From: Trichoplax sp. H2
Lineage: Eukaryota
Reading direction: 5' to 3'
Assembly: GCA_003344405.1 (NCBI GenBank)
Contig: NOWV01000012.1
Location: 124,001 to 188,000 of the forward strand
DNA: 64,000 bases
Shown here: positions 4,514 through 54,732 of the stretch, piece after piece
How positions within the stretch are numbered: the stretch's first letter is position 1
Layout: every line of letters begins with the position of its first letter
Program-made: the position numbers and the translations under genes
Notes under the pieces: generated by a model
The model's input: only the letters and a program-made list of their open reading frames with translations
What the model was told of the DNA's origin: nothing
Database searches by the model: none

Positions 4514-4925
4514 CTGTATACTGTAGCTGTCCTCGTACCGTACACTGTACTGTGTACGGTACGTACAGTACAGTACTGTGGCGGCTACAGTACGGTACGA
4601 CGGATGGAAAACTGGGGTGACATTTTCAATTGAAAAGACTGTACAGTGTACAGTACTGTATTGTACAGTATACTGTACACTATACACTGTACTATATTGT
4701 CATTCAATGTACTGTACAGTACACTGTACTGTACAATAGTCAATACGCTACTTTACAGTACCGAGTACTGTGAACTGTACAGGGTACTGTAAGTATTATA
4801 CTGTAAAGTCGCTCAGTTATACTGTATTTGTAAGGCACTGAAATATACTGTACATACTCTCGTTGTGCAACAAACCTCAAATTAAGAACTGTATCTCTAA
4901 AAAAGGACTACTCTACAGTACTGCA
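4514..4925. promoter_or_regulatory. TACAG/CTGTA palindromic tract upstream of DNAJC8
   Basis: Dense ACTGTACAGT/CAGTACTG units about 140-550 bp upstream of the ATG. Confidence 0.6.
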
Positions 4926-5034
4926 TGTCTGCATACAGTAATCAGGATTAATCATGAAAACAAAGAAAACCTCTAGGGATATTTTCTTTCTTTTACCTCG
5001 ATGGGAAAAACCCAGTTCACCTTTCAATTTTTAA

Positions 5035-5244
5035 CTGAGGCACTAACTGAGATACAGTACTGAAAGCAACAGAGATTGTTTTCCTTCACTCAGGCACTAA
5101 CTGAAATACCGTACTGAAAGCAACAGAGATTGTTGTTTTGGTTCGCTGAGGCGCTTACTGAAATACAGTACGGAAAGCAACAGAGATTGCTTTCCTTCGC
5201 TTGGGCACTTACTGAAATACAGTACTGAAAGCAACAGAGATTGT
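5035..5244. repeat. 54/57-bp minisatellite, left copy, truncated by N gap
   Basis: Unit ~GAGGCACTWACTGARATACAGTACTGAAAGCAACAGAGATTG plus a 12-15 nt tail; about 3.5 units before the gap. Confidence 0.9.
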
Positions 5245-5264
5245 NNNNNNNNNNNNNNNNNNNN

Positions 5265-6350
5265 GAAAATACGAGTATGCCCATCGATGATTATGCAATC
5301 GTTTGGGAGAGATATTACCTCTGTCAGGAAATTCTTGAAACTATCATCTGGTGGATTTTGATTCGTTCCGTCGCTTGCCATATTGAATGCTTGCAGTTGC
5401 TATCAACAGCAATTTTACACCTTCCAACGATTGGATCATTGATGGACAATTTCACCTTGATCCATTGGATTGGCGGGTACAGTGAAAAGCGCACCAAGAT
5501 TGTGTGCGGACAGTTCAGTCCACTGTAGCTGTCCTCGTACCGTACACTGTACAGTGTACGGTACGTACAGTACAGTACTGTGGCGGCTACAGTACGGTAC
5601 GACGGATGGAAAATTGGGGTGACATTTTCAATTGAAAAGACTGTACAGTGTACAGTACTGTATTGTACAGTATACTGTACACTGTACACTGTACAGTACA
5701 GTACCGTGGCGGCTACAGTACGGTGGATGGAAAATTTCAGTTTTAATTGAAAAGACAGTACTGTACGGTACTGCACCGTACTGTACTGTACAGTGTACAG
5801 TATTGTCATTCAATATACTGTACACTGTACTGTACAATACAGTAGTCAATACGCTACTTTACAGTACTGAGTACTGTGAACTGTACAGGGTACTGTAAAC
5901 ATTATACTGTAAAGTCGCTCAGTTACACAGTATTTGTAAGGCACTGAAATATACTGTACAGTACAGTACTGTACTGTACATACTCTCGTTGTGCAACAAA
6001 CCTCAAATTAAGAACTGTACAGTATCTCTAAAAAAGGACTACTGTACTGCATGTCTGCATACAGTAATCAGGATTAATCATGAAAACAAAGAAAACCTCT
6101 AGGGATATTTTCTTTTACCTCGATGGGAAAAACCCAGTTCACCAGAGGCACTAACTGAGATACAGTACTGAAAGCAACAGAGATTGTTTTCCTTCACTCA
6201 GGCACTAACTGAAATAACGTACTGAAAGCAACAGAGATTGTTGTTTTGGTTCGCTGAGGCGCTTACTGAAATACAGTACGGAAAGCAACAGAGATTGCTT
6301 TCCTTCGCTTGGGCACTTACTTAAATACAGTACTGAAAGCAACAGAGATA
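5265..6350. repeat. Near-identical second copy of ~4256-5244 (DNAJC8 exon 1, promoter and start of minisatellite); probable uncollapsed haplotype
   Basis: Starts immediately after the N run (5245-5264). Exon-1 copy at 5319-5381 encodes MASDGTNQ versus MASGGTNQ; differences are SNPs and repeat-unit indels. Confidence 0.8.
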
Positions 6351-6705
6351 GTTGTTTTGGTTCGCTGAGGCACTTACTGAATACACTACTGAAAGTAACA
6401 GAGACTGTTGTTTTGGTTCGCTGAGGCACTTACTGAGGTACAATACTGAAAGCAACAGAGATTGTTGTTTTGGTTCACTGAGGCACTTACTGAGATACAG
6501 TACTGAAAGCAACTGAGATTGTCGTTTTGGTTCACTAAGGCACTAACTGAAATACAGTACTGAAAGCAACAGAGATTGTGCTTTTCGCTTACTAAGGCAC
6601 TAACTGAAATACAGTACTGAAAGCAACTGAGATTGTGCTTTTCGCTCACTAAGGCACTAATTGAAATACAGTACTGAAAGTAACAGAGATTGTTTTCGTT
6701 CGCTT
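6145..6705. repeat. 54/57-bp minisatellite, about 10 units
   Basis: Tandem units with conserved core ACTGAAATACAGTACTGAAAGCAACAGAGATTG. Confidence 0.92.
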
Positions 6706-8835
6706 GAAAAATATTGAACATTGACAGTACTGTAGTGGCAATTTGACACACAGTATTAAGTGCTACAGTACCATGAAATAATACCATCAAAACGCCCGCA
6801 AGCAGCAGTTGAAATGACAACAAAAAGCTTCTCCAATGAATGAACTGCTGTTGCCTTCACTATATAGTCGGTACAGTAGCGCATTAACCATCATGAATTG
6901 CTAGATTATATAGTCATCATCACGCTATTCATGATGGGATTATGACTATTACAAGTTAAGACTATGTCAAATGAAGATGATGCATCACCACTTTAGGGCA
7001 TTGGAGGGCAAATTGAAGTATTTCAACTCTTCAATACGGTCCCAAACTAGACAGGCATGCTGGCAGGGATTACTAAAAGAATCCTGCTAATACGATACCG
7101 TCATAAAGTCCAAACAATATGATTGTAATGAAGTAGATGTCTTAGCATGTCGACTGCAGCTATGCTGTCCATTTTACTATATAGTAGGCCTACGAAAAGG
7201 AATCCCCCATTGAAAGGGACTTATTGTCAAATTGTCGTGGTCATCATCAAGCTAGTTGCAATAACTTTGAAATTGACTATACAAGCGGTAAATGAAATTA
7301 ACTCTAAATTACGGTATACTTAATTATTGTAAAATTTAATAATAATAATAGCAATAATAGATAGTCATATTAAAAATGAGATATCGGTCATAATAAATCA
7401 TATTTCCAAACCAGTCTAATGATAATTATCATCAGGGATTGCTCAATTCGTTCCTTCATGCACGATCGGCACACTTACAAAATTATTGTTCATATCCATA
7501 GTCCGTCTACTCACACTCAATCTTGTACAAAGAATTGACTCTGCACTATCGTTTTAAAACAAGATAGTGAGAAATACTGATTGAATAGGACAGGCTGTGA
7601 CAACTATTCAACGGTGTTGTCTTGTTGTTTGCTATTTAATTTGCATAATATATCAAAAATCCACCACATGCGTATCTTGATTCAATATTGATCTTTTGTT
7701 TATTCGCATTAATTAATGATAAATACAAGGTATTATTAATATTATCCTCTTGTTGAACAGTTATAGACTATTGGTAATCTTACTTTACCAAACGTTGACA
7801 AAAAATAGATAATTTTGCAATTGCTATGATAATAAATGGAAGATTGATAAAGGAAATTCTGTTGGGTTACCACGCAGTCTCGCTATAGGGTGCGCACCAT
7901 TCATTATTATTCTGATTATTATTTTTTGTTATTTTGATTTCCTTTATATTATATCATGAGAAAATTAGTAATCAAGCATTGGATCGATGCATACCCAGTA
8001 TTTGACATTTGCTAAAACAACAAAGTAGTATCATATTATTATCAAAGAGTACGACAATGAGCTGCATCAACAGTACTACATCTATTGCACTCAAACACCT
8101 CTAAGGAACGAGTTGAAATTTCTCTTAGATACTTCTGGTCTAGAGAATACCATTCTATAGTATATACTATAAATTAATTTCCATCTCGGTGGAATTGGTC
8201 TAAATATTTTTTTCTGCTCTTCCAACATTTTTTCCGTACTTTATTCATTTTTTTTTTGGTGTCCTCTGCTTGTTTCATGCAAGGCAAATCTACTGTAGCT
8301 GTAACTTGGGTAAGTATCGAATAAATCATATTAATGTAATAGAATAGAATGCCTGCCATTTTGTGTACTTTTACCATTATGCGCACACTGTATCTTGCTA
8401 AGATATACTGTAGGATGTATTTTTTCTTGAAATTAAATTAAGTGCAGTGCAATACAAACATTGAACACAATTTTCTATCAATTTTTCATCATTAATACTT
8501 ATTGTCTACTCGATACTTGTATCTTATTATTGCACTACTTTAGAGCTGAAATATTGATTAACTGCGATAATAAATTTTGAAGTTAGTATTATCTTCATTA
8601 ATATTTCCTCTTTTCAATTTACCCTTACCATAATTTACACTCGTACTTTGTAATTGATCGCAGTTTTATGTTTTATCTCTATCGTTCGTTTCCTTTTTCT
8701 CTTTTTAGTTTACAAAATATCATTTTATGATTGTTGGTTATCGAGTATCTTATCTCTATTTTTTGTCCATCTTAAATAGTTTGAACAACAGTCTCATTTT
8801 GCAAACAAAGATCATTCCTAAATTAATCAAGATAC

Positions 8836-11800: not shown

Positions 11801-13785
11801 TTCTAAATTGGCAATCAGATTACAGATCATTCTGTGGTCATGTAGTAGCTGAAATGATATCAATAGTTCCGAATTTTATAGCTGTATATCCGCACTTCCT
11901 TGCGAGATCGAACCTTTAATTTTTATGGTAATTTGGTTTGATGTTGTAGAAATTGAAAGAGTTAGAATGGAAATGATCGGACTTAAAGCAGAAAGCCCAA
12001 ATAGTTCATTTCTTGCTTCATTACCTGAACCTGAAGGTGACAAAGTTCAAATTATCGAGAAAGTCTTTATACCGGTTAATCGTTTTCCTAATGTGAGTAG
12101 CGATTTACTTTGTAGGCTAACATTACTACGTCAAATTTAAGATCAGTTTACTAGGCTTATGTTACAAATATGTAACATTATTTTTAATTCAAGTCGAATC
12201 AGTAATACCTTTCATCTGTTGATCCATTTATAATCGAGATGAAAACTAAATTTGATGTGTACTGAAGTCATGATATAGATTCTGGTTAAAAGCATGCGAA
12301 ATTATAGCGCAAGAATCGAGTTGTCTTCTAGTTCAGTATTTCTAATTATAATTCTAAAACTTGTATTTAGTATAATTTTGTAGGTCGACTTTTAGGCCCA
12401 AGGGGAATGACAATGAGACAGTTAGAACTTAATATAGGTTGCAAGGTGAAAATTCGAGGAAAAGGATCTCTCAGAGATAGAAAAAGAGTAAGTACTAAGA
12501 TAATCTAATGCTATATATAATCACTGAAAGGTAAAGAAAAGGACGTAATAGAAAAATTGTTAAACGCTAGAACTGATACGGCAAATACCTGAATCATCAA
12601 AACGTGTTTAATAAATTTAATGGAATTTGCAAATGTGCAAGGATTTTACATCTATATAAATGTGTGGATAGAAGCGTAACTTTTTTTAAAGTTAACCAAT
12701 CTGTGATGATTATTTTACAATGAACAAGTCATTGTGCGATATTACTGCTCCTATACTTAGTAGAACAGCGAATAAATTTTATTGTAGGCCTAATTTTGTC
12801 GTTGGGTCTATATGTGATACGTATTTGGTTTACCTAGCAATGTTGACATAACTTTAGATCATGTAGTAACTCATTAAACAAGCAAGCAGAGCACCTACAG
12901 TACCAAAATTATACTGCGGTAGATGTCCTTATATAGTATCTCATTCAATGACGAGAACTGCAGTCAGCAAATTCTTAACATATTTCACACATTGTCATTA
13001 GGAAGAACAACTAAGGGGCAAACAAAATTGGGAGCATTTACAAGAGGAATTGCATGTTGTTATCGAAGTGGAAGATACACCAACCAGGGCTCAAATCAAG
13101 TTAGAAAAAGCTAAGGATGAAATTAACAAACTATTAATTCCCGTGGTTAGTAATTTATCATCTTCATAATCATTTCATAACTTCTACACAACTAATAAAT
13201 TATGAGAATAAATTATGGACTTATGCTCTTATCAAAATTTAACGGATGACTTGAAATATAAAGTCTGAAGAAGATGACGAACTGAAACGAAAACAATTGG
13301 AAGATTTAAGGCTCTTGAATGGGGTAGAAGGTATGAGCTTTCTTCAACGAGATATGATAGTACAGTTTGGCAGTATAGCTGGTAATACAGCAATTTACTC
13401 AAAATGTTTATTTATTATATTAATTTTCAACAGCTGCACAAAATATGGATCCTACCAACAATTACAATAATGTTTACGCTACCGTTATTCCTAGTCCAGT
13501 TGATACTGGATTAATGCAGTATACTACAACTGGATCACTAGTTAGTGCATTTCAACCGTCATTAACTCAGTTGCAAAGTGGAATTATTGCATCACGAACA
13601 CCGACTACTTTAGTTCGACCTATGAGAATTCATGGTTAGCCTAATATACTGTACTAATATGCTTTAATAGTGTAAAAAATTTTATTGATGTTTATTTGTT
13701 AAAAGTGCTCTAAACCCTTGTACTAGGAGTAGTAACTGGAGACTACCTTAAACAGTATCGTGGACATCCATACAGACGATCTTAA
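8836..13785 (+). CDS. QKI: STAR-family KH-domain RNA-binding protein, Quaking/HOW-like, 7 exons
   Basis: QUA1 ([10 protein letters not shown]...[16 protein letters not shown]), KH ([18 protein letters not shown]...IRGKGSLRD...[17 protein letters not shown]), QUA2 ([17 protein letters not shown]), C-terminal RGHPYRRS*. Exons 8836-8980, 11950-12092, 12371-12487, 13002-13145, 13264-13330, 13434-13634, 13727-13785. Confidence 0.9.
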
Positions 13786-15030: not shown

Positions 15031-20073
<5,043 letters not shown>

Positions 20074-20343
20074 TTTCCTAGTGTTTAGTATGACTTCAAT
20101 GCTGTCCTGGCGGAATTATTAATAAAATAAGCGAAATGCAACTGGAGTTTCAAAGGGCCAACTTGGATTTGCTTTCAAGTTTAAAGGGAAGTGTGCGTTT
20201 TGATTGTCGTCTTATGCCTAAAACGGTATCCAGTTTTGATGCACAGTAACAAGCTGTGCATAAAAAGTGTCCCACACACCCAGGCGACAGTAGCGTAAAA
20301 TTCAGACCATACAGGACTAGAGACGGTGAGTTAGTGTCATGGG

Positions 20344-20525
20344 TGTACAGTATACAGTATACACTGGGTGTGCACTGTGCGGTAAAAGCTGGGAGTTGAC
20401 ACTCTCGACTGGAGTACAGTACTGTACTGTAGCTACATGGACTAAAGTACTGTACTGGATGCCCTATGGCATCTACTGTACAAAGTACTGTAACTGATGG
20501 CTAATATACTGTATACAGTGCTGTA
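20344..20525. promoter_or_regulatory. TACAG/CTGTA tract upstream of YARS1
   Basis: GTACAGTATACAGTATACACTG...GTACAGTACTGTACTGTA about 270-450 bp upstream of the ATG. Confidence 0.55.
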
Positions 20526-22285
20526 AGGACCTTTTCTAAAATGATGTCACCCCGTTAGGGTAAGATAGATATTGTACTGGCTGACTATACAACCTTAATT
20601 AATTAAAACAAAATAAAGAGAAACGAAGTAAAAAATAACTTTTTCAGCTTATAAACAAACACGGGTTGTTGAAGGAGTTCGATAAAGCATATTAGTATTG
20701 GGTAATCTATGGATACGTTCCCTTATTAATGAAAGTACAGTACTACCAATCAACATTCCTTCTTATCCTTTCGACTTTAATTCATTCTAAAATGATAGAT
20801 AGCTTAGTCTAAACGAGTTATGAAATCTTTAAACTGAGCTGCTGTAGATAAAAGTCATTTCACAGTCGGTAATACGTAAAAATACCTCAAATATATATTG
20901 TTGTATTATATAGAGACTGTACTACTATCCTATCACAGATTGCATAATTTATACTGAAATTTGCAATAGCATATTGGTAAATATGAAATTATACAGTGGT
21001 AATTTTCTCTTAAAACAATCAGCGTCTTCTCAAGAGAATGGCATCGGTTGCACTCACTCCAGTAGATAGGTGATCGAAGACAATCCAGTCCAGTACAGTA
21101 CTGTATTTGCCAATCAACGTCAATTTGCAGTATACGAGCGTACAGTACAGTAACACTTAGTACTACTGCATATTTACTGATAATTGCGACCAGCATTCTG
21201 CAAAATTATTTAACGCGTAATTTTATCTATCTAAAAGTTTTGTAGCACAGTACAGTAATTTCAACTGAATAATTACAACATTTGTACAGGATATGAAAAT
21301 ATGCGATCAAATATTTGATGCTTTCTGTAATTATAATTACACAATATTATTACACTTAAGTTATAATGCTATCACATATTGCACTTTTGCTTTCTATAGA
21401 TTACTGTACATATCATAATAAAGCATATACTAATCAATTTTAGCCAGGCATGACTATTACAAGTCATTCCCATGTACTGTAAATACCAATCAGTAATATT
21501 AGTATACTAGTATATGGTACTATCGATGATAGTGACGGATTTTTACTAGTTTCCTCTTAAAATTAGAAGTTCCTGGTATACTTCTGTAGCGTATAGAACG
21601 GTTTTAGAGCACCACTTACGATGAGAATTTGATCCGCACACACATCTCGTCTGTTCATTGAGCGTTGCAATTTCTGGACTAAAGCAGCAACTGTAAACTT
21701 ATTTAATATGCACACCCAATGAAAAGATCAGGATTACATAAGAAATAAGCTTGACATAAATCCCTGTTTGCAGTAATACACGGCACAAGTAGAGACGCAG
21801 TAAAATATTTAGTTATAAGGGAAATGCAGTGTACAAACGTACCGGCGGTATGTGTCCGTATAGTATAATACCACAAGTGGAAAATCTCTTCTGCATTGTA
21901 TACATAGTAATTTTATCAAATGTTACAGATGTATTACTTTTCAAAAATTTTATTGTTCGACGTTCCTAATAGTCATTGAACACATTGCTTTATCAAAGTT
22001 TACTTAACAGCAAAAATAGCTTTTGTAACACTAATCCAACATGAAGGTAATTGTACATCAAACAGCAGCATTTATACGAATTAGGATCATAATCAATTCG
22101 TATTTTCAGTTTATAGCGCAAGGCATGCATTAAATAATAAAAATACAATAATGTCGAAACCAGGATCTAAACAGTACATTCATTAGGTCTCAGACGTTGA
22201 AAGAGATTTAGATTGACATAGGTCAAATCAAATAGAGAGATCAAATTACTTAAATGCATCCATCTCAATCGAAGCAAAACGTTGA

Positions 22286-24536
22286 TTACAGTTTCTTCTT
22301 ATTATTCTTCACACCATATAAACTACTTTTCTCCGACATTGTAAAATTACGCGCTATCAATCCACCTATAATAACTATAAATTAAAAATGCAATGTTATC
22401 AATCCTTTCTCTAAAATAGTTGAAACAACATAGCGCAAATACTAACATTCAAATGATAAAACAATAAGAAACTCAATCGTTACACAATACTAAGATCAAA
22501 GATACTTACTCAATAAGGAAAATACACCAGACGAGACTAATGCAACTCTAGATCCACTAATAATGGCAGGAATTAAATAAAATACTAACGAAACTAAAAC
22601 AATTGTCCACCAAATTGTAGTTAATAGGAAAGTAGTACGGTTACGATGGGCGTAACACCTAGGCCAACCAACAGTACCTTTTTGCAAATATTCATCCATC
22701 AATTGATCCTACAAGCATCATTCTTAATTAGATACAACGATTATATGTATATTATGTTAAATCATTCAGGTATCATACCTTTGTCACGTATAATTCCCTT
22801 AAAAATTTTGTGCAAGCTTGTTCGTCATCTTCACCTCGTATCACAGAGATCGGAAGGCGCCTAAATTCAGGCAAAAAATAGTATTTAAGATCTTCATTAC
22901 TTGAATTAACGAGGATCAAAACTAATATTTTTGTATCTGGACCAGTAGAAATGCTTTGATATCGTGTATCTAAGCGAGAATATAAAGGACGGTAGGTTCT
23001 TATACATAATTATAGTTACCTTACAAGAAGAACTATTTTACAAGGTTTGCAGAACAACAAGTGCATTAGGCTAGGCAACGTATCGGGAAATATGAAAGTG
23101 GTATCGTAGATTGCATCACCTGGTGGTTTGGTAGCCAAATCGTAAAGAAATTTTTATGAATAATTCAATATATCTAAAGAATGATATACAGTTTTATATA
23201 ATGGAGTTATTGCTAACATTTTTCCTTTAGACAACTATATGCAAGTGTAAAGCCCTTAACACGAGGCTGCATGTGGTGTTTAAGAACTGGAAGGCCATTT
23301 TTTTTTGCAAATTCAACACTTTTTAGGTATTTTTCTTTCGTGTACCTTGTACCTTCTGCAAATATTGTTAACTTTAAAATAAAATTTACAATCAGACTAG
23401 CAACGTGGGAAAAGACGAGTAACACCAAGATGATTTATAAATGCGGTAAATACTTATAGTATTACCCATAAAGGAAAAGGCCCTTCTTTCAGACTTTTTA
23501 ACTGCCGTTCCAGAGATATAGAATCTTTAGCCCAGTCCCTCTTAACAAAGAGATGTTCTAAGTTCCAGAAAGAGAAACCGAGTAGGGGGACGTACTTTAT
23601 TGCTGATTTCAAATAGCATTTTGTAGCCTTCAATTCAAATATATTTCAAATATGTTTCAAATGTAAGTATTTACCGTAATAAATAAATAGATGCTGATTT
23701 TTCATGTACTTCTTTCGAGTTATTGAGTGAAAAATGCAACTTTTTCATTGCGTTTTAAACATTATAACATGTGAGACATGAAGAAATAGTACTTTCGTAT
23801 GATAAATGTGCACGTGATAAAGTAAGGTTATAGATTATAATATATTAATTATACTGTAAATCCGAATATTTACCGGCACCATATTAAACCTATCAGCGAA
23901 CGTCAGGCCAATCAGCCAGTCAACATCGCTACGATGATTTGCGACAATCAGTGCATTTTCCTTTCCGAAATATTTATCATCATCATTCGGGCAATAAACT
24001 TCCCATTCTAAGCCACTCCAGAATTCAGGCAATGCCGTTAAATCTATACAAATAAGTTATCATTTTTATTATAGAGCACAACATATGCGTTTTGTAGGTT
24101 GTAAAGAGATGCAACTCTTTGATATCGTATGTGTATGTAGTCAATAGTTTATATAATCTGCAGTAAAAAGTACTAGAACAGCACATAAGATAGACAACAG
24201 AAGGTACGATATTGTAGAGCTGTACATTCTTACATGATGCAGCACCATAACTCTTTCACTGCATGAATAGAGAAAATATAATTGATTCATCTGCAGTATA
24301 AAGTAATAGCATCACTGTATTAATGATTACAATACTACTGTACATAAGATACTGTACTTACTTGCAAGCCATAGGCGACCTATTGCCATAGATACGTGTC
24401 TATAATATACTTTAGATATTGGCCAAAGAACTAACGAAAGGATATGAAAAATGCATGCAAACGTTCCGCTAACAAAAAAGACGGTTGCATACAAGAACCA
24501 AGCCAATGGTGATTTCTTAAAAGCCGTAAGCGCCAT
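22286..24536 (-). CDS. AGPAT3: 1-acylglycerol-3-phosphate O-acyltransferase, AGPAT3/AGPAT4 group
   Basis: Catalytic NHRSDVD (NHX4D), FVKRDWAKD, FAEGTR and PRVKGF motifs; C-terminal TM helices and KKKL* dilysine ER signal. Probable non-coding first exon ending at a GTGAGT donor near 26651 and spliced to an acceptor near 24561. Confidence 0.88.
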
Positions 24537-26939
24537 TATTTCAATCCACTGAATCGGCACTGTGAAAAGCAATGAGTGTGCAAAATAAGTACATTTTATG
24601 TACGCCTGTAATAGAGATTTAATTGGTACTCGCCCCACTCTTGAATCATGATAACTCTCAGGACATACGAGTAACAGTAATGGAAAGCAGCTACATCAAC
24701 AATCACGAACAAATCAAATGTCTATGTTTAACTATGCAAATCACAAACCAAAATTAATTGTAACTCCATTTAAGCACTGATCCTTAAATAGCTTATAGTA
24801 TCGTAGAACGAGCATCTAAAGTTACTTCATTTCAAAATCAGCGAAATATCTGACTATCACAATTCAGTCACTCATGCAAAATGACATTATTCCTATAAAC
24901 ACAACTTAAGGGTATGCATGCATAATTACTGTAGATAGCACGATCAGCACGAAGTTAACAAAAGAAGACTCAAAGCCTAGCACATATGCTGTTTACTATC
25001 TGCCTTGATACATATACCCATACTGTACAGTTCTCAACATTATAACATGGTGCAATTTTAGTTGAAGAATCTGTTGTGCGCTGATTTTCGTTGTTTTTAT
25101 CTCACTCGTACTAATGAAGCTTACGCACAGTAACGATGATTATCTTAACCTATCATACAGAGTACTTTTGCACCTGAGATGCAATTACCGCAGTTTAGCA
25201 TGCAAATAAATAAATAAATACGTCAAATCATAGTTGAAATGAGGCGTTGTACTATACACGTATGAGTGAGTATGGTGCAGACGGCAGTGTTTACTATTTA
25301 ATGTTAAGGTTTTTCTCGCGTTGTAAAAGGCAGTTGCCCGATTGGACGCATCCGCAGGTAAATAACAGGCTTCTGAATACAGTAAGTAGTAGTGTCCTGC
25401 ATTTGACTAAATGTTGATTCCAACATTTGCGCAGTCACGCCTCATGCATACGTTAAATCAAATAAATTAAATTAAAAAAAAAAATTAAATTTATTTTGCG
25501 ATAGATTATAGAATATACATGTTAGACACTAAAGAATTACCATAGAGGTTTTACGTCCATGAATCAGTCGACTCAGAAAAAGTTCAAAAATATATTAGTA
25601 CTTTGCGCATAACACATGCATGTCAATATTGAATGGTGTACTATTAATGGCATAGTTTAGCTCATAAAGAATTGATGCAAAGATATACTGCTCTAGATCC
25701 AGTATGCACTATTGCAGATTTCACTATTAGCACGTCGAGTAACCAATAATTCATATTATGCGACTCAGGCGAATTGCAATATTGTAACACTGTGAATAAT
25801 GATCAAGCTAGCTTTCATACCGACGTTTGGGAAATAAAATTCGATGCATCCAATGTTTATTAAGGAATATAACACCATTGAGCAAATGCTTGCCAGCAAG
25901 TATACATCAACCGTTTCAAAGTGCTGTCGGTATTGCTTTAAACTAAACTACAGCACTGTATTTATTTACAGTTGAATGCTAAACAAATAAATGTTCAGTC
26001 TTCTACAGCAGAATCGATCATTCTGCGATCGCGGTCCGGTCGATATTGAGCTAATTTATTCTATAGCAAAAGATTCTGCATGATTGACTACCACCCTGCT
26101 ACCTATAACGATGGATAGATCAGCTATTCGATAATGTGCGGTGCAATAGGAGTGTAGTATTGCATTGCCTTTAGACACTTTGCCATATTGTTTTGAAGTA
26201 CCGTACTGCTAGGGAAAAATTGTATGCGTAGGTGCAGTAAGTTAAAAATTGGTGAAAGCGTAGCAGCAGGGACTTTCTTAAACCATCAATATACAGTACA
26301 GTACAGTACTGTACTGTACAGGAGGATAAAGTGACCTCGATGCAAGTGTAGGTGTCGTGTAGTGCGATCAATGCTATTGCACTCGACATACTGTAATACA
26401 GTGCGACCACTGTCGTTAGCCTTTGTACTACTGTATATTGGCATAGGAGGGTATATCTACAGTAGTAGTCCATAAAGGGACTAGCCAGATCCTCCAAAAT
26501 AGTAAATTGCAGCGGATGCTATCAATATTATCTGCACATGTGTTCATGTTCCTATTGCATTGATGTAGGCTATAAAAATCACTTTCTCAACGATGCCAAT
26601 GCTTGTATATACAGATGACATCAATAACAAGAAGAAAGGATCTTAACTCACCTCAAGTTGTGGATGTTACAGTAATCTTCAAACGCTCATCCAAACATGC
26701 AGACTTGCAAAATGTTAATCGCAATACTCGTGCATTCGCTTCCAGACAGTTGCAAGTGTTGAGCTTTTAAATCATCCGACCTCAGTTGATATACGATAGT
26801 TGTTGATATATACGTGACAGATACAGTACTGTGATGCACCGTGTTGTGACTTGTGACCCCTCGTGACCTCTGAATCTGATTCACGCAGCAGAGTTCATGT
26901 ACACTGATACGAGACTCTGAACCACATAGAGTACGTTGC

Positions 26940-27235
26940 TACAATGCACAGTACAATGTGGTAATCTGTACTGTGCACTGTACACTGTACAGTTCTTTTA
27001 TCAGTCCGCGCAGATGTCGACCAAAAGCTGCTGACGTGTGATTGATTGCTAGGCGAAGTACTGTACTGTACAGTACACTGTACTGTACATAGTCATTAAC
27101 AGTACTGTACTGTACAGTGTACAGTACTGTACGTACAGTATTAGAAAAGATACCGGTAATTTTTCGACTAGCCTATTAGGTTATACTGTACTGTACAGTC
27201 ATATAATGAAACTACAGGAATTACTGTACAGTAAA
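26940..27235. promoter_or_regulatory. TACAG/CTGTA tract in the divergent AGPAT3-SRA1 promoter
   Basis: GTACTGTACTGTACAGTACACTGTACTGTAC etc. between head-to-head genes. Confidence 0.6.
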
Positions 27236-27365
27236 GTAATTAATAATAACTATTGAACCACGGCAGGCTAAACGAATCAATCAACGAACGAACCAACCAA
27301 CGCACGATCGACTGGAAAACGGAATCCCAGTGACTATCGCTGCTCAATCCTGGTTCAAGAACAAG

Positions 27366-30314: not shown

Positions 30315-30796
30315 GTCTCATCGCCTTTCTACTATGACTTTTATGTAGAACATTTATGAGACATATATATGTATTTTTCATACTAGGAGATTTCGTCATA
30401 TAGTACAAAAGATATGACTGTTATACAATGTAATGCATCGAAGTGATATTATAAGCCATACGAGTGTTAAATCAAGAATAAGCAGGTTTTAAATTTCATC
30501 TAATATATAACATAATTACTTCACTGCTTCTGTTACCTCCCTTACTCGAAATAATGTTATATTATATTATTACCTCTAAAGACTCGATAGTTGTATTTCT
30601 TACAGTAGATATGACTTTACTGTAACTATGAAGTATGACTGTATACCTATGAACGACTTCAGCACCTTCTTTGCCATTGTATAAGACATTGATTTGGTCA
30701 GCCATTATAACATTTTATTATATCTATTATTGCAATCTGAAAGCTAACACCATATCTATCATTAATACAGTAGAAAACTAGTTCCATGTATTGTGT

Positions 30797-36103: not shown

Positions 36104-36180
36104 TGTGTCTGCTACTCGCAATGGTACGAATGAAATGATGTCACAACTGCGGTTGTGCTCACCACTTGATTTCATAGGAA

Positions 36181-36417
36181 TACTATACAGTCCAGTACAC
36201 ACAGTGTACAGTGTACAATGCACGGTACATTGTACGGTACATATACTGGATATGTACTGTACAGTATGATACCGTACAGTGTACAGTGTACAGTACAGCA
36301 CAACAGATCTCTGCAAACGATGTTGAAATGTACTGTACTGTACTTTACCGTACTGTACTGTAAGCAAAGGACTGTACTAGTACTGTACTGTACAGTCCTA
36401 CTGCGAGTACCGTACTG
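36181..36417. promoter_or_regulatory. TACAG/CTGTA tract in the divergent CHM-NUP98 promoter
   Basis: Fills much of the 522 bp between the two start codons. Confidence 0.65.
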
Positions 36418-36625
36418 CGCGAAGTTAGGGCCAAAACGCTGAAATCAGACTGCCTACTAAGCATTTCAAATATAACTTTCCTGCTGGCACATTGGTGCAC
36501 TGGCGGCAAAATGAAGCTATAAAATTGAAGTCCTTGTGCTGTGATAACGAAAAACTGTGTGATTTAACAGTTGACTTGGTTTGAAAAAGCCGTTGGAAAA
36601 GAATTCTAAAATCTTATTAACAGCT

Positions 36626-45600: not shown

Positions 45601-48527
45601 CCGTTGTTTTCGCCATCCCGAGGTAAAGATGCGGCACATGAATATGCCCGTCAATCTGCCACGGTTGTTGCACAAGGTATCTGATCAAAAGAGGATTAGC
45701 TCCTTTTTGTTATATATGAATATGTGAACGCAGATTCCTTATCTTATCTATAGGTGCAGAAGATAAGCAGTTACAACACGCGTCTCAAGTATGGGACTTA
45801 GTAGTTGCCTTATGGGGATTCCCCTCGAAAGCCACCCCTGATGGGAATGAATCCAGCAGTGATGAAAGTGATACTGAGATGGGTAAGAAAGTATTTTTGC
45901 CCGCTGTTTTGCATAAGTTTTAATATTTATTCGATTTTACTTAACAGAAGCAAAGAATCTGAATTCGTACGAAGAACAAAATGAAAGAAGACATGCTCTT
46001 TCCAATTGGTTTAGGCGTTCAGTTATTAATTCAAATAGTACCAAAGCTACTGCTAATGTATGATATGCCTTCATTATTAAATTGAAAATTAGTGTTAGTG
46101 CTAATTATTATTTCACTATTTCATTATATTTAGTCACCTAATATCAGTATGATCTTCGATCACTTAACTACAAAATCCATCAATGAAGCATGTAATATCT
46201 GTCATGAAATTGGAGATTATCGTCTTGCTTTACTGATTTCGCAATTGTCTGGTTCAAGAAACGTTACTGCACTTGTGTCTCGACAGTTAGACGACTGGTA
46301 TAAAAATAAGGTAAATACTGTTCTACTCTTGGAATTAGTTTAGATTTAAGAGATTTACAAATTGCTGCATAGTTGATTTATTTATTGTCTTTCCTGCAGG
46401 CCGATCAATTTATCGACCATAATAGATTAAAGATCTACGCCTTACTTGCTGGTAAAAAGCTATGGGAGACGTCGAATAAAATAAGAATATGTCCGTGTGA
46501 GGATCTAAATTGGAAGAAGGCTATGGCTCTACATATGTGGTATAATTATTTTCATTCGATTCAAATTATAAGGTTGTGCTTGTTTTCTGAGCCGATTTCT
46601 TTTTATTACGTAGGTACATACTTCCAACCACCAAATCTATTAGAGACGTTATCTCAAATTATAAAGCCGCTTATCAAGTAAGTTGTTTGCATTTTTTAAA
46701 ATAAGCGTCAAAAATCTTATGATATCCATATCGGCTTCTAGGGAGGGAATGGCTATGAAAAATACGCGAATCCTCCATTACCATTTTACATGCAAGAAAA
46801 GTTAAAGACAGATGACAATCACAAATCCATTGAGGACCTGTGCTATCATCTATTATGTTTGTATTGTGACAGGTCTCATAAACTTCAGCAAATGCTTGCC
46901 AGCAATACATTTACTCCTTTCCAGTTAGATTGCAGCCTTAGGTAAGTTTTTATGCTGTTGATAAATTTTAATTGGGTTTACTCTTAGATCAATCTAACAT
47001 CTATTCCAGTTGGCACTTATATCAGTGTTTGGTATCGTTGGAATATCATCATCTATCAGCTAAATTTGTGGCCAATCTGCATACGAATTATGCAGCGCAG
47101 CTAGAATCGTGTGGAAATTGGCATTGGGCAGTATTTGTAATGTTATTTCTAAAAGATGATCAAAGGTCTGTATCTAATACTTTCTTAAACTTTTCAACGA
47201 CCTGAAACGTAAAATAATAATTTTAACGCCCTGGCAGACGAGAAAGAGCTGTCCGCGACCTACTGAACAGGCATTGTAAATTAACCACCGTCGATGTTGC
47301 AAAAGAGAAATTTATCGAAGACAAGTTGTTAATACCGCCAGCTTGGATCCATGAAGCGAAAGCACTTCGTGCTAAGTATAATGGACTTCTAAAGGAAGAG
47401 GCTTTTCATTTGCTAAAGGCGAAGCAGTGGCAAGCAGCCCATAATGTCATTATAAATGACTTAGCTGCAGATTGTATTCTGGAAGGTAATGTACAAGTTT
47501 GTTAGCTGATCTGCTGTTATAGACTCAGCTGTACAAAGGATGATTAAATTTAGGTGACACAAAGTATCTACGTAAAATCTTGGAAGAAATCCAAGCAGAG
47601 GGTGCTGACGGTTATATTGAAAACTGGATTAATGGAGGACAAGTAATTGCAAATTTTTATCACACCTAGTCTTTAATAGGTTATCAGCCGCGATAGTCTG
47701 TAACCTTGAACTTTAATCTTCGTTAGTTATATTTAGATTATATTTTACTAAAAGAAACTGTTAATACACTCAATCTTCAGGTTAGTACAGTAGTAAGCAG
47801 GTGAAGTTGGACTTTTGAAATTAGTATTCGTATACAACTACCTAACTGTAAACTTAGAGCATAAGTTCGATCTATATTTATATGCAGAAAAATGTACAGC
47901 AGCTGTTACGAGATTGTTCGGAGATACAATTGAAATTAAATTCGCTCAAACCCGAAAATAACAAACGAAAGTAAGTAGTATATTTCCTCATTCAAATTGA
48001 CTTGGCATTCAATTAAGCCTAATTTTACGCTATATTTCTATACTCTATTTTTGAAGAGCATGCAAATTTTTTATGTCCAGTCACGTTCTAAATATTATCA
48101 ATAAATACTCCATACGCCAGGTGAGGCATCTTTAGCTCGTAGCAATCATTTTATTGTTTAATTTATCTAACCTATTTCTTTAAATTCATTAAAGCTACGT
48201 ATTAATGAATTAAAGGCAGAAGTTACAGCACCTCCATTAGTCAAGGAAGGTAATTTCTGTTGCGACTCTGACATAGCTTATTTCAGAAATATCATGAAAT
48301 CTGTTGTAAGCAACTAGAGAATTTAAAAATTCTTAGCTGACGCCATTTATACAAATAAAACTTCTTTCTTGAGTGAATGGCGCAAGCTATGTGGACAATA
48401 TTGTAAATCAAATATAAAAAATAAATTGTGCAATCTAGTCATCACCTATAGTAAGATTGTCTTTTCTACGATGTACAGATCTTGCAGTGCAATCAATTTC
48501 AAATTTATTTATAGACCAGTCCTGTAA
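36626..48527 (+). CDS. NUP98: Nuclear pore complex protein Nup98-Nup96 precursor
   Basis: FG/GLFG repeats; GLEBS motif (CISAMNEYIKKSPE|ELRYEDYMQNRKG); SPYGDTPLF; autoprotease domain (GYYTIP...VGREGFGSV...RLNKPA...WQFR|VEHFSKYGL); Nup96 part (GRSFRVGWGP, DYRLALLISQ, YAAQLESCGNWHWAVFV). Last exon and stop are uncertain. Confidence 0.93.
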
Positions 48528-49426
48528 AATATTTTCGTTTTATCACTATGAAATTCATCTTCCAGGATTCTTTAAAAGAGTTTAAAAATAATATCGACAT
48601 AAATATTTAGGATTTTCAGCAATTTTTTGATCAAATTGTCTACATTGGCTGTATTATTATAAATCTCGTGATTAACATTCTTAAGAACAATTTGCTTTGC
48701 TTAATTTCATTTTATGATAATTAACTACTACATTAATCATGTCGAAATCATTTATGCATAGGTATACATGATTTTATATATTAATAATAAATTCTCTTGA
48801 TACAATGATGTTCATTCGGTTTGTTCGATTACATTCTGTACCTCAGTTCACACTAGCTCAGATGGTAATGTTGGCTAATAACCTAGTGTAAAACATTGAT
48901 ACCAAAACTAACTCAAAAAGCATCAAACGTTATATACAAACGCAGAAATCTCTCAGTCAAAGATGCTCCATATTATACATTGTAAATGGTGTCCGGAAAT
49001 CCCCTATTGAGGGATTTTCCGGTATCAGGCAGATGCCCAAACTCTATAGTACGTGTACGTATAACTAGCCTGTACAGTAAACACAGGAGTAAAAGTTTCC
49101 TTACTTTGTGTCTACGTCCTGTATAGTAGTATTATGTAAAACTTTCTAGAAACTTACACCCTGTGCTGAAGGTTAGCTGAAGGTCCTAACTGCTGTAAAT
49201 ACAGTAAAAATCATCATTTTACATGGTTATTAAGGCACCGTAATGTACAGTACAGTACTGTAGACTCCTTATGATTGACCCGCAATAGCACAGTACTGTA
49301 CTGTGCGGTACAGTTTGTACCGGCACCATTGCAATAATTAATTAATTAATACTAATTAATACAAGCTAACCATTTAAAAATAGTCTATTCATTCAAGTAG
49401 TAATTTAGAGCTTGTTACGATGATAT

Positions 49427-49509
49427 GTCAGGATGGCCGAGCGGTCTAAGGCGCTGCGTTCAGGTCGCAGTCTACTCTGTAGGCGTGGGTTCGAATCCCA
49501 CTTCTGACA
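49427..49509 (+). tRNA. tRNA-Leu (anticodon CAG)
   Basis: GTCAGGATGGCCGAGCGGTCTAAGGCGCTGCGTTCAGGTCGCAG...GTGGGTTCGAATCCCACTTCTGACA: cloverleaf with long variable arm, A and B boxes. Confidence 0.97.
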
Positions 49510-49516
49510 TTCATTA

Positions 49517-49524
49517 TTTTTTTT
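49517..49524 (+). terminator. RNA polymerase III oligo-T terminator
   Basis: Run of 8 T starting 8 nt after the tRNA 3' end. Confidence 0.75.
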
Positions 49525-50461
49525 ACGGGTATCGTACCGTACAGTACTACTTAGCCCTGCTGCACTGTAACCTCAAGCTTAATTAACCCTAACTTGACCA
49601 CCAATACTCAATATTACTTTCGATACTTACAGTTGCAGATATCTACGCCATAGAGGTTAGAAAAAAATCTAGACCGCTAACTTACCCTCCTCATTATATA
49701 CAGTACATATAATTTTCAAATTGGACAAAAATTATAATAACTAATCAGTAACTCTAAAAAAATTATCTCAATTTCAGTGGATAGTGGTGACCCTGTAGCC
49801 ACTTAAATAATAATTGTAACTAATCGTAAACGCTATTTTATGGATTTTTTTACAGTATACGTACCTTAACAATCGTGATATAATATAATTTATTAAAAAC
49901 TCGAACAGAACTCTACTCCGATATTTACTGTATATCATGGAAAACTCTCACGTGTATCAGTATTTAGTGTCCAGATAGATACTATATTTTATACTTACAA
50001 TCTATAAATCACAAGCCGTTGTATCAAAATGTGCAGTACACGCATCACATGAGATAGAATTTATAAATTTATCAGCATTTATTAAACTTATTAATGCCAT
50101 TTTATTTCCGTTATACAGACGTAGTACCTATCATTATTGAACAAAACACTGGTAAGCTAAGTGGGTCAAGCAAGCTAATCCAAAAATGGGTGTAATTCAA
50201 ACTTAACTAATGCATCATAAATTAACTATTTAGCCCTTGTTCCTTCCTTTCCTGACAACAAATAGATATCTTACTAAACAATCGTTTACGAAATAGTGTT
50301 TGACATACACCTTTGCAACTGTATAACATCAATACCTTGAGCAATGATCAAAATTTTACGTATCAACAAAGTACTAAGATAGGTATAACGTAATAATTCG
50401 TTTTATGAATATCTTTTATGAGTATTTCGGTGAGATAGCTCTGCAACTACGTCAATCCCTT

Positions 50462-53400
50462 CTAATTTTGCTTTCCATATTTGCTTGCAAGTTTGTTTAT
50501 AATGTTCATTACCTTCGAATTATTTTGATATTTAGAAACATTTTGTGGATTCATGCTCACATCCTGGAACGCGGCCATAATCTCTGGATCCTGATAGTAA
50601 AATATACGAGTATTGATTACTTTATTTGCATGTAATCGAGTATAAGTATGAATACTGTCTGAATATTTTAAGAGCTAAGTTAGAAATAATACGTTTCGAG
50701 AAGTATAATGATTTACCTGAAATGCAGCGATAATCTCGGGATCATTCAACATGGCATTAATATCAGGCATCTGACCTAATTTTTTTATGAATATTCAGTT
50801 CATTAGCTAAATTGCAAGGTATATAAATCCCATACAAATCAGTAAGGCTTAAATCAGCTGTAGTAGCGAAGACTTGCACCCGCAAACGATTACAACACAA
50901 CCAACAGTAGATTATTTTGTAAACATATTGATGTTATACTATCGGACTGCAACAGTTATAAAATTCAAGATGTCATACCGGCACCAGCACCTGGCATTCC
51001 ACCAGCCCCTGGAAATCCTCCAGCACCTAATAAATTTCGAATAAAACCTTAAATTTATGTAGCTACTTAATGACTACATCGTCAAATACTGCAACAGTAA
51101 TAAAATCCAAGGCGTCGTACCGGCACCTGCACCTGGGAATCCACCAGCACCTAATAAATTTTAAAGAAATTCTAAAGTTTATGCAGCCACTTAATGAATA
51201 AATCATGAAATACTATAACAGTAACAAAATCCAAGCATCGTACTGGCACCTGCACCTGGGAATCCACCAGCCCCTGGAAATCCTCCTGCACCTAATAATT
51301 ACGAATAAAGTCCTAAATTTATGTGGCTACTCGACGGTTAAATAATGAAATATTAAGCCGAGCCTGCACCTGCTGCACCAGGGAATCCACCTACCACAAT
51401 TACAGTAAAATAATTACTATTGGAATATCCATGATGTAGATTAATATAATTTTCAGCCTTACATACCTGCTCCAGGAAATCCACCTGCACGCGAAAAGTC
51501 CGCATTAATCATTAAATGAGAATTAATAATAATCAAATTAGAAAATTATAACAATTCTACTTTACATACCAGCTCCGGGAAATCCACCAGCTCCTTAGAA
51601 TTTAGAATTAATCATTAATATAGATATCTAAATAAGAGCCAAATCATCGACACCGGAGGACTAGGTGCCAAGCAAGAATAAGCAATATCTGTATCAAACT
51701 TTAATTACCTGCTCCAGGAAATCCGCCTGGAGTCCCTGATTCTTCTTCCTTTCTTGCTCTTTCTTCCTCTTCTTTCCTAGCCTTTTCTTGAGCCTCTTGA
51801 GCCAGTCGTCTACACGATAACGACACACCAAGCGATAAATTAAAGCATATTAGACTCTCGCATAGTTGCTCAGAGACCGAAATCGTTACATAACACGACA
51901 TTTAATGACATACACTCTTTCCCTTCGTTCTTTTATTTCCTTTTCCGCCTTTCGACGTTCTATTTTACGTTGGTGCTCTTGAATGCGCTGAGCCTAGTCA
52001 ATGTAAAATATTTATTTTATTCTAGTGCAACCAAATTATTTACATGTATGCATTGTTATAGTGAATCTGTTACCACAAGTTATCAATTTACCCTTGGTTG
52101 AACATAGTTCAAGACTTCTTGAGCATCTTCACTGAAATCTATCTTGACAGAAAGTCTTAAATCTGAAGCCGATTTGTCCCATTTACCTAACATTCTGCGA
52201 TGTTATGAATTATATCATATCACTTACTAGCTTTATCGCATAATTCGTGGTTGTGAAGAAACTACAATCATTTATGTTAATAAACTACTATTTGCATAAC
52301 TTACACGTATACGAAGAGCAGTTTACCTGTAAGCGATACCTCTCCACTTGTATGCCTGGGCTGAGTCAGGATTCAATTGAATTGCTTTGTCACAATCACG
52401 AATAGCTGCGTTTGGCTTTTTCGCTTTTATATATCCTCTAAGATTGAGAGGATAAAGCTATTTGTTACTATGTTATTTCATTACTTTGCCCAGCAACACA
52501 ATTTGACATATAATTCTTACCCTGCACGCTTTGCAAATAAAGGCGCTGATTGTGGATTTAGCATTATAGCTTCTGCATAAAGTTTAATGCCTTCGTCGAT
52601 ATTTCCTAATTGTGAGATTTAAGAGTATAAATGATCAATTAACTGAGCATGTTATGTTAAATATCTTAACTCTAGTTAATCTACTAGCACAACATTATAG
52701 TACTAAAGATTGTGTAAGTCAGGAGATACCGTCAGCTAATGCAATATTTGCATTCTGTCTCTTCTCTGACGCTTCTTCTAGCATTTCCTCTGTGACCTAT
52801 AATAAAATTAGCGAAGAGTATATGCCCATATACTTGTTAAGCAAACGCTAAAATTAGCCAAGCATACATCTGCATAACCTAGTATGCCTACACAGTGCAC
52901 TATACTGCGTATTATAAAGTACTTCAGAATTGTCCGTTAACCTCTTTAGAACCATCTCCCATAGGTTGAGGAGCATCATCGTCACCTTCAATGACACCTT
53001 CCGCTTCAATATCTAAGTCACTTTCTTCACTCTCTTCTGCCGGGGCCTCCGGAGGATTCTCTGGCGGACTATTTTCTTGGCTTGACTGCGTTAACAGAAT
53101 CGACAATGATCACGGTTAATCCATAAAACAATGTCTTCCATTAAATTATCATAATAATGGTACAGCAAGTTTTTTAATCATAGAAATTACTCTCGACGCG
53201 CGTAATGCTTCAACTATTACAACTCATATTAGGCAAAAAATTTGGCATCAATCGTTTTAAAGACCATAATTGCACAAACAGTGGCAATTTCGAAACTACT
53301 GTTTATGGAAGGTAGTATTCATTCGCGACTACCACTGCTACTTTTCTTTCAAACTTTCTGGGCATAAAATAATGTAATTTGCTGATCCAACCTGGCTTTC

Positions 53401-54121
53401 CGATTCATCATCTATGCTTTCCTCGACTTTCTCTTCTTCCGGTTCAGCCGCTTCAGGAATCTTACCACCCAAGCTACAGACGTATACCAAGCATAAAGTA
53501 TAGATTTAGAAACATTCATTTACTGTTAAATAGTATTACTTACAAACGTATGCACGATGAGAAATGACCGTATGAGATTACAGTGACAGTTCCATTCTAT
53601 TTTAACATAACATAATGGAATCTGACTGTCTGAAATCGCATACAGCTGCACAGTTGCACATTATTACTATACAGCTGCAAGTGACTACATAAAATAAAAT
53701 TAATATTATCGAGGGCTAAAATGTTTTCATTTCTATAATGTACGTAGTCCTATGTTTCCGTTTAAGGGACCTGCTGGTATCACTTCCGATCTCTTCAACT
53801 GAACTCTGGAGATGTTTACACTCGATATTGGACAACTGTATAATGTATATGTGTGCCTCCACCGTAATCGAAAGTATCGACTTTTACTATACTGCATTTA
53901 CTCCAGATAAGCTGTATTGTTAATGTGTAACATCTATTTTACTACCTTATTTGAAATAAAATTAATCAAGTGTATTCATTGCAGATGTGCTTCATTATTT
54001 CTCACCTAACAATAAAATCAGCAAAAAATTTCAATTCTGGAAGGCGCAACATCGCGGGATTATTTTTGCAATGGTCAATAAATTGCTCCAAAAGTTTGAG
54101 ATGTTGGATCGAAGTTGCCAT
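50462..54121 (-). CDS. ST13: Hsc70-interacting protein (Hip)
   Basis: N-terminal dimerisation domain ([12 protein letters not shown]...LGGKIP), ESEESDLDI...GVIE, TPRs ([28 protein letters not shown]), GGFPG/GGMPG repeats, STI1 domain [24 protein letters not shown]; stop 50462-50464. Confidence 0.95.
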
Positions 54122-54321
54122 TTTGTTGATAATATCTGATTTGGATTATATTTAACAAACCTGTCGAAGAGTAGTTTCAGCGTCAAATCCAACGGAAGAA
54201 AGTCACTAGCGAAGATTTTACTTACTTGTGAGAAGTTGAAATCGTGGAAGGATTGCTCGGCACAGCGGCGATTGCAATTGGTCCTCAGGTGCCACTACTC
54301 TTGCCTTTTAAGTTACTTTCG

Positions 54322-54732
54322 CAGTACTGTACACTGTACACTGTACACTGTACACTGTACTGTACAGTATAATGTACTAAATCACTAAAATCGAATACAG
54401 TACTGTATGGTTCAATAGCACACTCTTAACGTGAATTTGCTCAAAGTGGCCTATCGCCTTTTTTCAATAACTGATCCAACGCCATTTTTTGCCACTTTCA
54501 AATGCATCAGTCTTTAAAATGGCCCTAGTTGACTTGACGTAAATAGAATTTCTTCACCAATATCCCGTGAAGTTGTTGGGAGTTTATTTTCCTTATTTAT
54601 TTATTTTATTTTAAATTCTACATTACTGGAAGTTAAAATCCAGATTTTTGAATATACAGTACAGTGTACAGTACGTACTGTACAGTACACCACACTGTAG
54701 AACACGAACTGTACACTCTGAGTGTACAGTAC
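54322..54732. promoter_or_regulatory. Two TACAG/CTGTA tracts in the divergent ST13-SH3D19 promoter
   Basis: (CTGTACA)x4 at about 54326-54353 and an oppositely biased TACAGTACAGTGTACAGTAC tract at 54655-54732. Confidence 0.6.

Follow-up and report, generated by a model that had tools for sequence, protein, structure and literature searches.

What are the dense mosaics of short TACAG-like words that lie at gene 5' ends and beside a tRNA gene in Trichoplax, and do they represent a promoter-marking system that has escaped description? This question was raised by a stretch of 64 kb from Trichoplax sp. H2 (contig NOWV01000012.1, positions 124,001 to 188,000 of the forward strand), which is called the window below, has 33.9% G+C and contains a single run of N at 5244-5264 (21 bases). 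All coordinates are those of the window. A sequence-only reading of the window had proposed that such tracts mark every housekeeping promoter, and had known of no description of them. The tracts are a microsatellite that is already in print, the promoter-proximal (ACAGT)n repeat of Trichoplax, which was described in 2010 as (ACAGT)n upstream of genes and again in 2025-2026 in connection with loops and insulation. As for their role, it is probable that these GTAC-cored arrays of the (ACAGT)n family, located 80-220 bp upstream at broadly expressed genes, are putative clustered protein-binding sites that evolve by slippage.

Wang, Zhang, Meyer and Bao (2010, Biol Direct 5:18; PMC2871265) reported that 7,233 of 11,697 Trichoplax microsatellites (61.8%) are pentanucleotide repeats and that 78% of those are ACAGT. 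The ACAGT repeats were located upstream of genes, 54% within 1 kb and 85% within 5 kb; genes near them were enriched for translation and protein modification, and a role in transcription factor binding was proposed (PMC2871265). Kim et al. (2025, Nature 642:1097; PMC12221973) described a group of promoters, GP1, that covers about one third of genes (n = 2,978), belongs to housekeeping genes and is positive in ATAC, a test of chromatin that transposase can enter, and for histone H3 lysine 4 trimethylation (H3K4me3). GP1 promoters form promoter hubs via loops, and a motif is enriched at the loop anchors. According to Kim et al., this motif is contained in Mutator terminal inverted repeats; it is also present at orthologous promoters of other placozoans (Fig. 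3d legend), and peptidergic cell-type genes (GP3) are without GP1 promoter features (PMC12221973). The Chimaera network (NAR 2026; PMC12817080), trained on Trichoplax Micro-C, gave repeating ACGG and ACAGT as insulation motifs. In silico insertion of the motifs found alters the contact maps predicted by the network, and its Trichoplax model responds to the M1BP motif (PMC12817080).

A literature search pairing ACAGT with Trichoplax returned only the 2010 paper and the Chimaera paper as relevant, and the promoter and repeat passages of Najle et al. (2023) contain no mention of the tracts. Other searches, by sequence word and on promoters in general, yielded no relevant paper. The texts of Kim et al. 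and of the Chimaera paper mention neither microsatellites, simple repeats nor the title of the 2010 paper, and that of Kim et al. does not mention tRNA. Since the 2025 and 2026 papers are silent on the 2010 microsatellite report, the link among the three descriptions may merit stating.

Tracts in the window

The words TACAG, CTGTA, TACTG and CAGTA, hereafter units, occur 796 times in the 64 kb, compared with a mean of 290.4 (standard deviation 15, maximum 333) in 100 dinucleotide-preserving shuffles of the window. When 200-bp intervals were taken at steps of 100 bp, 32 had at least 11 units and none did in any shuffle; the richest interval had 36 units, compared with at most 9 in every shuffle. 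With a tract defined by at least 6 units per 100 bp, 18 tracts were obtained, which together cover 3,505 bp and hold 361 of the 796 units. All nine intervals named in the sequence-only reading are dense, with 186 units in 1,438 bp (12.9 per 100 bp, compared with 1.24 window-wide), the least dense being 49535-49570 with 3 units. Its statement that gene bodies have only scattered single units was roughly right but inexact, because the 60.5 kb outside tracts carries 435 units, about 1.6 times the shuffle expectation. It had overlooked the largest tract (5478-6066), a 54/57-bp minisatellite, the tracts at 21060-21179 and 55558-55698, and four weak clusters. The tracts and clusters are as follows.

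4469..4940, no strand: GTAC-cored tract, 50 units, about 100-140 bp upstream of where the DNAJC8-like gene (minus strand) has its first coding exon
5478..6066, no strand: largest tract, 76 units, a near-copy of 4469-4940 across the N run 5244-5264
20288..20579, no strand: tract, 24 units, 216 bp ahead of the start codon of YARS1 (20072, minus)
21060..21179, no strand: smaller tract, 13 units, flanked by YARS1 (5' end) and AGPAT (3' end), with no gene assigned
24294..24356, no strand: minor cluster, 6 units, in AGPAT intron 1
26204..26464, no strand: tract, 20 units; a (TACAG)6 core occupies 26292-26321, and a perfect palindrome of 24 bp lies at 26296
26949..27233, no strand: tract, 37 units, stopping 136 bp short of the plus-strand exon-1 donor at 27369
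36186..36417, no strand: tract, 29 units, filling the CHM/REP-NUP98-96 head-to-head region
38653-38702, no strand: weak cluster inside a gene
49193..49313, no strand: tract, 14 units, 113-233 bp upstream of tRNA-Leu
49535-49570, no strand: tract remnant, 3 units, downstream of tRNA-Leu
54322..54407, no strand: tract, 15 units including (ACTGTAC)5, 196 bp upstream of the ST13/Hip start codon
54624..54731, no strand: tract, 14 units, with a perfect palindrome of 20 bp, on the SH3-gene (plus) side of the ST13/SH3 intergenic region
55558..55698, no strand: weaker tract, 10 units, upstream of the first recognised coding open reading frame (ORF) of the SH3 gene (56956)
56372-56451, no strand: weak cluster upstream of the same ORF
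60963-61083, no strand: weak cluster inside a gene

Positions of the tracts relative to genes

Genes were placed by Pfam domains and by reading of first exons. In the list below, the last figure is the distance from the gene 5' end to the nearest upstream tract.

Start codon about 4372, minus: DNAJC8-like gene (name from the sequence-only reading); 93 bp
Start codon about 8836, plus: QKI, Pfam STAR_dimer; 2,066 bp
Start codon 20072, minus: YARS1, Pfam tRNA_bind; 216 bp
Start codon 24535, minus: AGPAT, Pfam Acyltransferase with a score under the curated cut-off; 1,669 bp from the start codon
Exon-1 donor 27369, plus: plus-strand gene ('SRA1'); 136 bp from the donor
Start codon about 36105, minus: CHM/REP, Pfam RAE1/2; 81 bp
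Start codon 36627, plus: NUP98-96, Pfam NUP98; 210 bp
49426..49510, plus: tRNA-Leu(CAG) gene, flanked by NUP98-96 and ST13, both with the 3' end towards it
Start codon about 54126, minus: ST13/Hip, Pfam STI1 DP; 196 bp
First recognised coding ORF 56956, plus: SH3-domain gene, Pfam SH3 domains
Start codon about 63525, plus: signal-peptide gene; 2,445 bp

Pfam gave no match for the ORFs tried for DNAJC8 and SRA1, and both names are those of the sequence-only reading. At 44950-45420 there is an exon with 99% identity to Trichoplax sp. H2 Nup98-Nup96, which points to Trichoplax as the source. Splice joints in two RNA runs placed exon-1 donors at 27369 (plus-strand gene) and 36691 (NUP98-96), both just downstream of tracts, with a contig overhang of only 27-36 bases on the shorter side; the joint 27369 to 29176 (GT..AG) is present in RNA runs X19 and X20. 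All four RNA and DNA runs compared with the window consist of contigs, from which transcription starts are not readable. RNA and DNA contigs break at tracts because the words repeat, and contig ends near tracts are therefore uninformative. Run X14, whose RNA label is only a guess and one piece of which, like the matching DNA contig, stops within a few bases of the adjacent tract, was not used, and no evidence was drawn from the thin RNA cover in parts of the region upstream of AGPAT.

Nine 5' ends were tested, those of the DNAJC8-like gene, QKI, YARS1, AGPAT, the plus-strand gene, CHM/REP, NUP98-96, ST13 and the signal-peptide gene. A tract lies within 300 bp upstream at six of them; in circular shifts the mean was 1.18, and 77 of 20,000 shifts reached six. 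These six (the DNAJC8-like gene, YARS1, CHM/REP, NUP98-96, ST13 and the plus-strand gene) correspond to the housekeeping pattern of the type described by Kim et al. The distance from tract to start codon, or to exon-1 donor, is 80-220 bp at broadly expressed genes, often in short head-to-head regions. Such intergenic regions are filled by tracts where CHM/REP faces NUP98, where ST13 faces the SH3 gene, and next to the plus-strand gene on its AGPAT side. Among regions with gene 3' ends only, 13700-15700, 30264-31020 and 61300-63400 have no tract, and 47502-50465 has one, which adjoins the tRNA gene.

The proposal that every housekeeping promoter is marked held in that tracts track 5' ends, and genome-wide work in print likewise places them at housekeeping promoters; it went too far for AGPAT, whose start codon is distant from the nearest tract and would be linked to it by a candidate exon. 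AGPAT has a good acceptor about 25 nt before its start codon and a donor-like site near 26655, and this splice consensus suggests a candidate untranslated first exon beside the tract at 26949-27233. This tract is a candidate bidirectional promoter common to the plus-strand gene and AGPAT. As had been stated, no tract lies upstream of the signal-peptide gene, with none within 2.4 kb. For QKI, the nearest tract is about 2 kb off, and the cluster at 4469-6770 shares an intergenic region with QKI. The idea that the tracts are shared by polymerase (Pol) II and Pol III loci has a basis in the tract flanking tRNA-Leu; it was overstated from a single tRNA gene.

Other features of these genes were observed. 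A AACGAACCAACCAACG-type repeat at 27271-27307 separates the tract at 26949-27233 from the exon-1 donor at 27369 and is located roughly where transcription of the plus-strand gene must start. In the region 29176-33495, single RNA contigs of two runs carry the joints of both plus-strand introns (GT..AG, as far as 30264) and minus-strand introns (CT..AC, starting at 31020); thus, the 3' ends of the plus-strand gene and CHM/REP seem to overlap or abut. Two RNA runs have a 12-base insertion, AAGATTACGAAC, at 29127 that is absent from a DNA run of another organism label; strain variation is the probable cause. A tandem repeat of 124 bp (2.2 copies) is located at 51000-51275 within the ST13/Hip gene region, and 15/30-bp repeats encode a proline-rich stretch at 57126-57240 in the SH3-domain gene.

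Internal structure of the tracts

The word GTAC occurs 420 times in the window, and the distance from one GTAC to the next is 5 bp in 67 cases and 7 bp in 29 cases. Inside tracts, the spacers between GTAC cores are T (29), A (23), ACT (12), AGT (9), G (6), C (3) or none (4). The array units are therefore GTAC+W, which is the ACAGT/ACTGT pentamer, the 7-mers GTAC+ACT and GTAC+AGT, and a minority of GTAC+G, which reads as ACGG. Because a G spacer occurs between GTAC cores, the published ACGG motif corresponds to the GTAC-G-GTAC variant of the same arrays. Thus, in the window ACGG and ACAGT are variants within one GTAC-periodic array. Tandem Repeats Finder reported period-5 arrays at 26292-26321 (6 copies), 27058-27140, 36329-36393 and 5758-5791, and the tandem pentanucleotide pattern GTACWGTACWGTACWGTAC matched 5 times, compared with 0 in shuffles.

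ACAGT and its reverse complement ACTGT are about equally common and are interleaved in most tracts. This frequent strand switching results in nested, perfect palindromes, which range from 16 to 30 bp in the tracts and include examples of 30, 26, 24 and 20 bp. The palindromes named in the sequence-only reading are real: TACTGTACAGTA occurs 7 times, compared with 0 in 30 shuffles, and CAGTACTG occurs 28 times, compared with a mean of 0.9 and a maximum of 5.

It may be considered that palindromic arrays act as a structural element independent of proteins, which extrudes cruciforms or resists nucleosome wrapping and by itself keeps promoters open. The longest palindrome, 30 bp, exceeds those of 30 shuffles (mean 16.4, maximum 24), and single-strand DNA folds of two tracts gave z = -6.15 and -6.09, with 0 of 200 shuffles as good, as such an element would have. 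These z-scores are a measure of self-complementarity and not of cruciforms in vivo, since fold energies of an isolated strand are uninformative on extrusion from duplex chromatin. In addition, most arms are short, imperfect and interrupted, and the sequence-specific pairing of promoters in loops (PMC12221973) is easier with a bridging protein. We give this explanation very little probability.

Changes in tract length

The sequences on both sides of the N run, 4256-5243 and 5265-6360, are about 98% identical in their unique parts and differ chiefly inside the tract, by insertions or deletions (indels) of 7, 104, 20, 5 and 5 bp. The duplicated 1 kb or so contains the minus-strand gene's first coding exon as a second copy. 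It is probably two haplotypes set in tandem at the assembly gap, or else a very recent tandem duplication. Whichever the origin, tract length changes in unit-sized steps. A further length difference was found in one DNA run, which has an extra TACTGTACAG (two units) at 24335 in the minor cluster at 24294-24356. A minisatellite with one ACAGTACTG core per copy is located between the tract cluster and QKI.

5034-5244 and 6137-6694, no strand: 54/57-bp minisatellite, 3.9 copies in the former and 9.9 copies of a 57-bp unit in the latter, 84-86% identity

Recurrence outside the window

When one DNA run was compared with 19800-39799, 4,069 contigs matched and were piled on the tract bins. The summed depth of three tract bins was 2,533-5,135, compared with about 30-37 in most other bins, a figure that does not represent copy number. 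Tract-like sequence is thus present in very many different contigs of this run, and its long contigs break at tracts. Tract-like contigs were also found in RNA runs (202 and 131 records); therefore, some tracts are transcribed somewhere.

Relationship to transposons

Mu elements of maize prefer the 5' ends of genes. The tracts may be explained, as Kim et al. proposed, as terminal inverted repeats of a Mutator-family DNA transposon that favours active promoters, so that any function of the tracts would be secondary. In their data, 'Mutator' annotations are enriched at housekeeping promoters and the terminal-repeat consensus resembles the loop-anchor motif (PMC12221973). The perfect palindromes in the window fit this explanation. 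Moreover, a search for exact direct repeats of 9-11 bp on either side of 14-bp inverted ends (12 or more matches) found 12 structures in the window, compared with a mean of 0.17 in 30 shuffles.

The sequence-only reading had named remnants of one known transposon as a possible refutation. In 9 of the 12 structures the 'target-site duplication' is the repeat unit, and the remaining 3 have it at the offset of the local duplication; no duplication of host sequence was found (0 of 12), nor any internal sequence common to tracts at different loci of the window. Self-BLAST between loci matched simple repeat only, over at most 74 bp, with no common backbone. The sequences flanking matched contigs of the DNA run are unrelated and mutually discordant, with a consensus agreement of 0.36-0.43. 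No long transposase-like frame is present in the window, the longest stop-free frame being 338 aa in the SH3-gene region; a search by transposase-domain family was not made. By homology, the 2010 account lists only 6 MuDR fragments (3,498 bp) and one miniature-element family of about 20 copies (PMC2871265). A preprint that deals with transcription factors of transposon origin reports none of the FHY3 type (Mutator-derived) for Trichoplax.

Inverted repeats are abundant, but a strand-switching microsatellite would yield them automatically. Since the 12 structures are built of repeat units or of the local copy, a structure-based caller would report inverted repeats with a target duplication where there is no transposon. 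Calls of such elements by EDTA are largely structure-based. The transposon annotation of Kim et al. was made by EDTA v2.1.0 (PMC12221973). The tracts of the window look like unstable microsatellites, not transposon copies, and we regard a Mutator origin as quite improbable. As host-derived target-site duplications and shared internal sequence are absent in the window, the published Mutator attribution may be questioned.

A broader proposal goes beyond the window and is offered tentatively, as a possibility somewhat short of probable. The 'Mutator terminal-repeat motif' at placozoan loop anchors would not be derived from a transposon. Instead, it would be a self-expanding, strand-switching (GTACN)n microsatellite mistaken by structure-based callers for short inverted-repeat elements. 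A simple repeat would then have been adopted by the phylum as its code for housekeeping promoters and loop anchors, and would also mark Pol III (tRNA) genes.

Discussion

The arrays are here explained as putative clustered sites for a sequence-specific placozoan protein, which would probably be a dimer. Such a protein would keep constitutive promoters nucleosome-free, and the same protein would hold promoters together as the loop anchors or insulation points of the published 'promoter hubs'. The arrays themselves would lengthen and shorten by replication slippage.

Several observations weigh against this explanation. Three of the nine 5' ends tested, those of QKI, AGPAT (measured from the start codon) and the signal-peptide gene, have no nearby tract, and the four weak clusters (24294, 38653, 56372 and 60963) lie away from known 5' ends, three of the four inside genes. 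Tract length, unit order and ACAGT/ACTGT orientation follow no rule relative to gene direction; because of this irregularity, a tolerated by-product fits equally well as a binding array. An alignment of 12 copies of the 54/57-bp minisatellite shows a ACAGTACTG core conserved no better than the rest of the unit. Arrays of (GTACW)n were found in at least 113 metagenome contigs, whose origin is unchecked and whose median G+C is 0.43, compared with 0.34 in the window. Among the matches listed, 96 of the 113 contigs match in one orientation only, and strand-switching mosaics like those of the window were found in L020, L032, L067 and L074 among the contigs listed (L001-L113); none of them yielded a placozoan locus or promoter information. 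The (GTACW)n repeat itself may therefore not be peculiar to placozoans. In addition, the identity of the motif of Kim et al. with the tracts is inferred from one sentence of the Chimaera paper, which assigns ACGG, not ACAGT, to the element of Kim et al. (PMC12817080).

The tracts may alternatively be a passive by-product, namely slippage-prone microsatellites that arise and are tolerated in open, nucleosome-free promoter DNA, mark promoters and have no role in promoter function or looping. The irregular order and orientation of units, the unremarkable minisatellite core, the one-orientation metagenome arrays and the weak clusters in introns all fit this idea, as do the unit-length indels between the two local copies and the unit-length difference between DNA runs. 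The published data point in the other direction: the motif is reported at orthologous housekeeping promoters across placozoan genera (PMC12221973), inserted motifs alter predicted contact maps (PMC12817080), and the repeat dominates the microsatellites of the genome (PMC2871265), an unusual rank for a pentanucleotide. In the window, three of the four regions with gene 3' ends only have no tract, though they are likewise non-coding. We regard a by-product without function as unlikely, and clustered protein-binding sites remain our preferred explanation.

An early-branching animal with a genome of 100 Mb appears to use a single microsatellite family as a mark of about one third of its promoters, which are grouped in three-dimensional hubs. 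Since the system is already published, the finding in the window adds little. What the window may contribute is that ACGG and ACAGT belong to one array, that the arrays evolve by unit-length indels, that they appear to be without transposon hallmarks, and that one array flanks a tRNA gene.

Compared with known systems, the tracts are closest to the (ACAGT)n of Wang et al. They share with it the Trichoplax group, the pentanucleotide unit, the position upstream of genes and the suggested transcription factor site, and the window has what defines the repeat: Trichoplax DNA with tandem ACAGT repeats longer than 12 bp, upstream of genes within 1 kb (PMC2871265). The microsatellite passages of that paper concern perfect repeats longer than 12 bp only, and do not deal with 7-nt units, strand switching or palindromes, bidirectional promoters or a tRNA gene. 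The motif of Kim et al. is likewise repeated at housekeeping promoters and absent at peptidergic genes, which fits the pattern of genes in the window; it differs in being ascribed to Mutator terminal inverted repeats (PMC12221973), whereas the tracts of the window have no transposon features beyond their own palindromy. Both strings of the Chimaera paper occur in the tracts, ACAGT as the main unit and ACGG where the spacer is G. In that paper they count as two motifs, of which ACGG alone is ascribed to a transposon (PMC12817080), whereas here they are variants of one array.

The tracts also resemble DRE/BEAF-32 and M1BP of Drosophila, CpG islands and the sites of yeast general regulatory factors, a likeness of role only, with no sequence relationship. 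For CpG islands, the analogy drawn in the sequence-only reading is good for function and fails for composition, the observed/expected ratio of CpG being 0.64 in tracts, compared with 0.89 in the window, and the G+C of tracts being 0.27-0.43. All of these systems are short features that mark constitutive promoters and coincide with insulation; they are single sites, not long microsatellite arrays.

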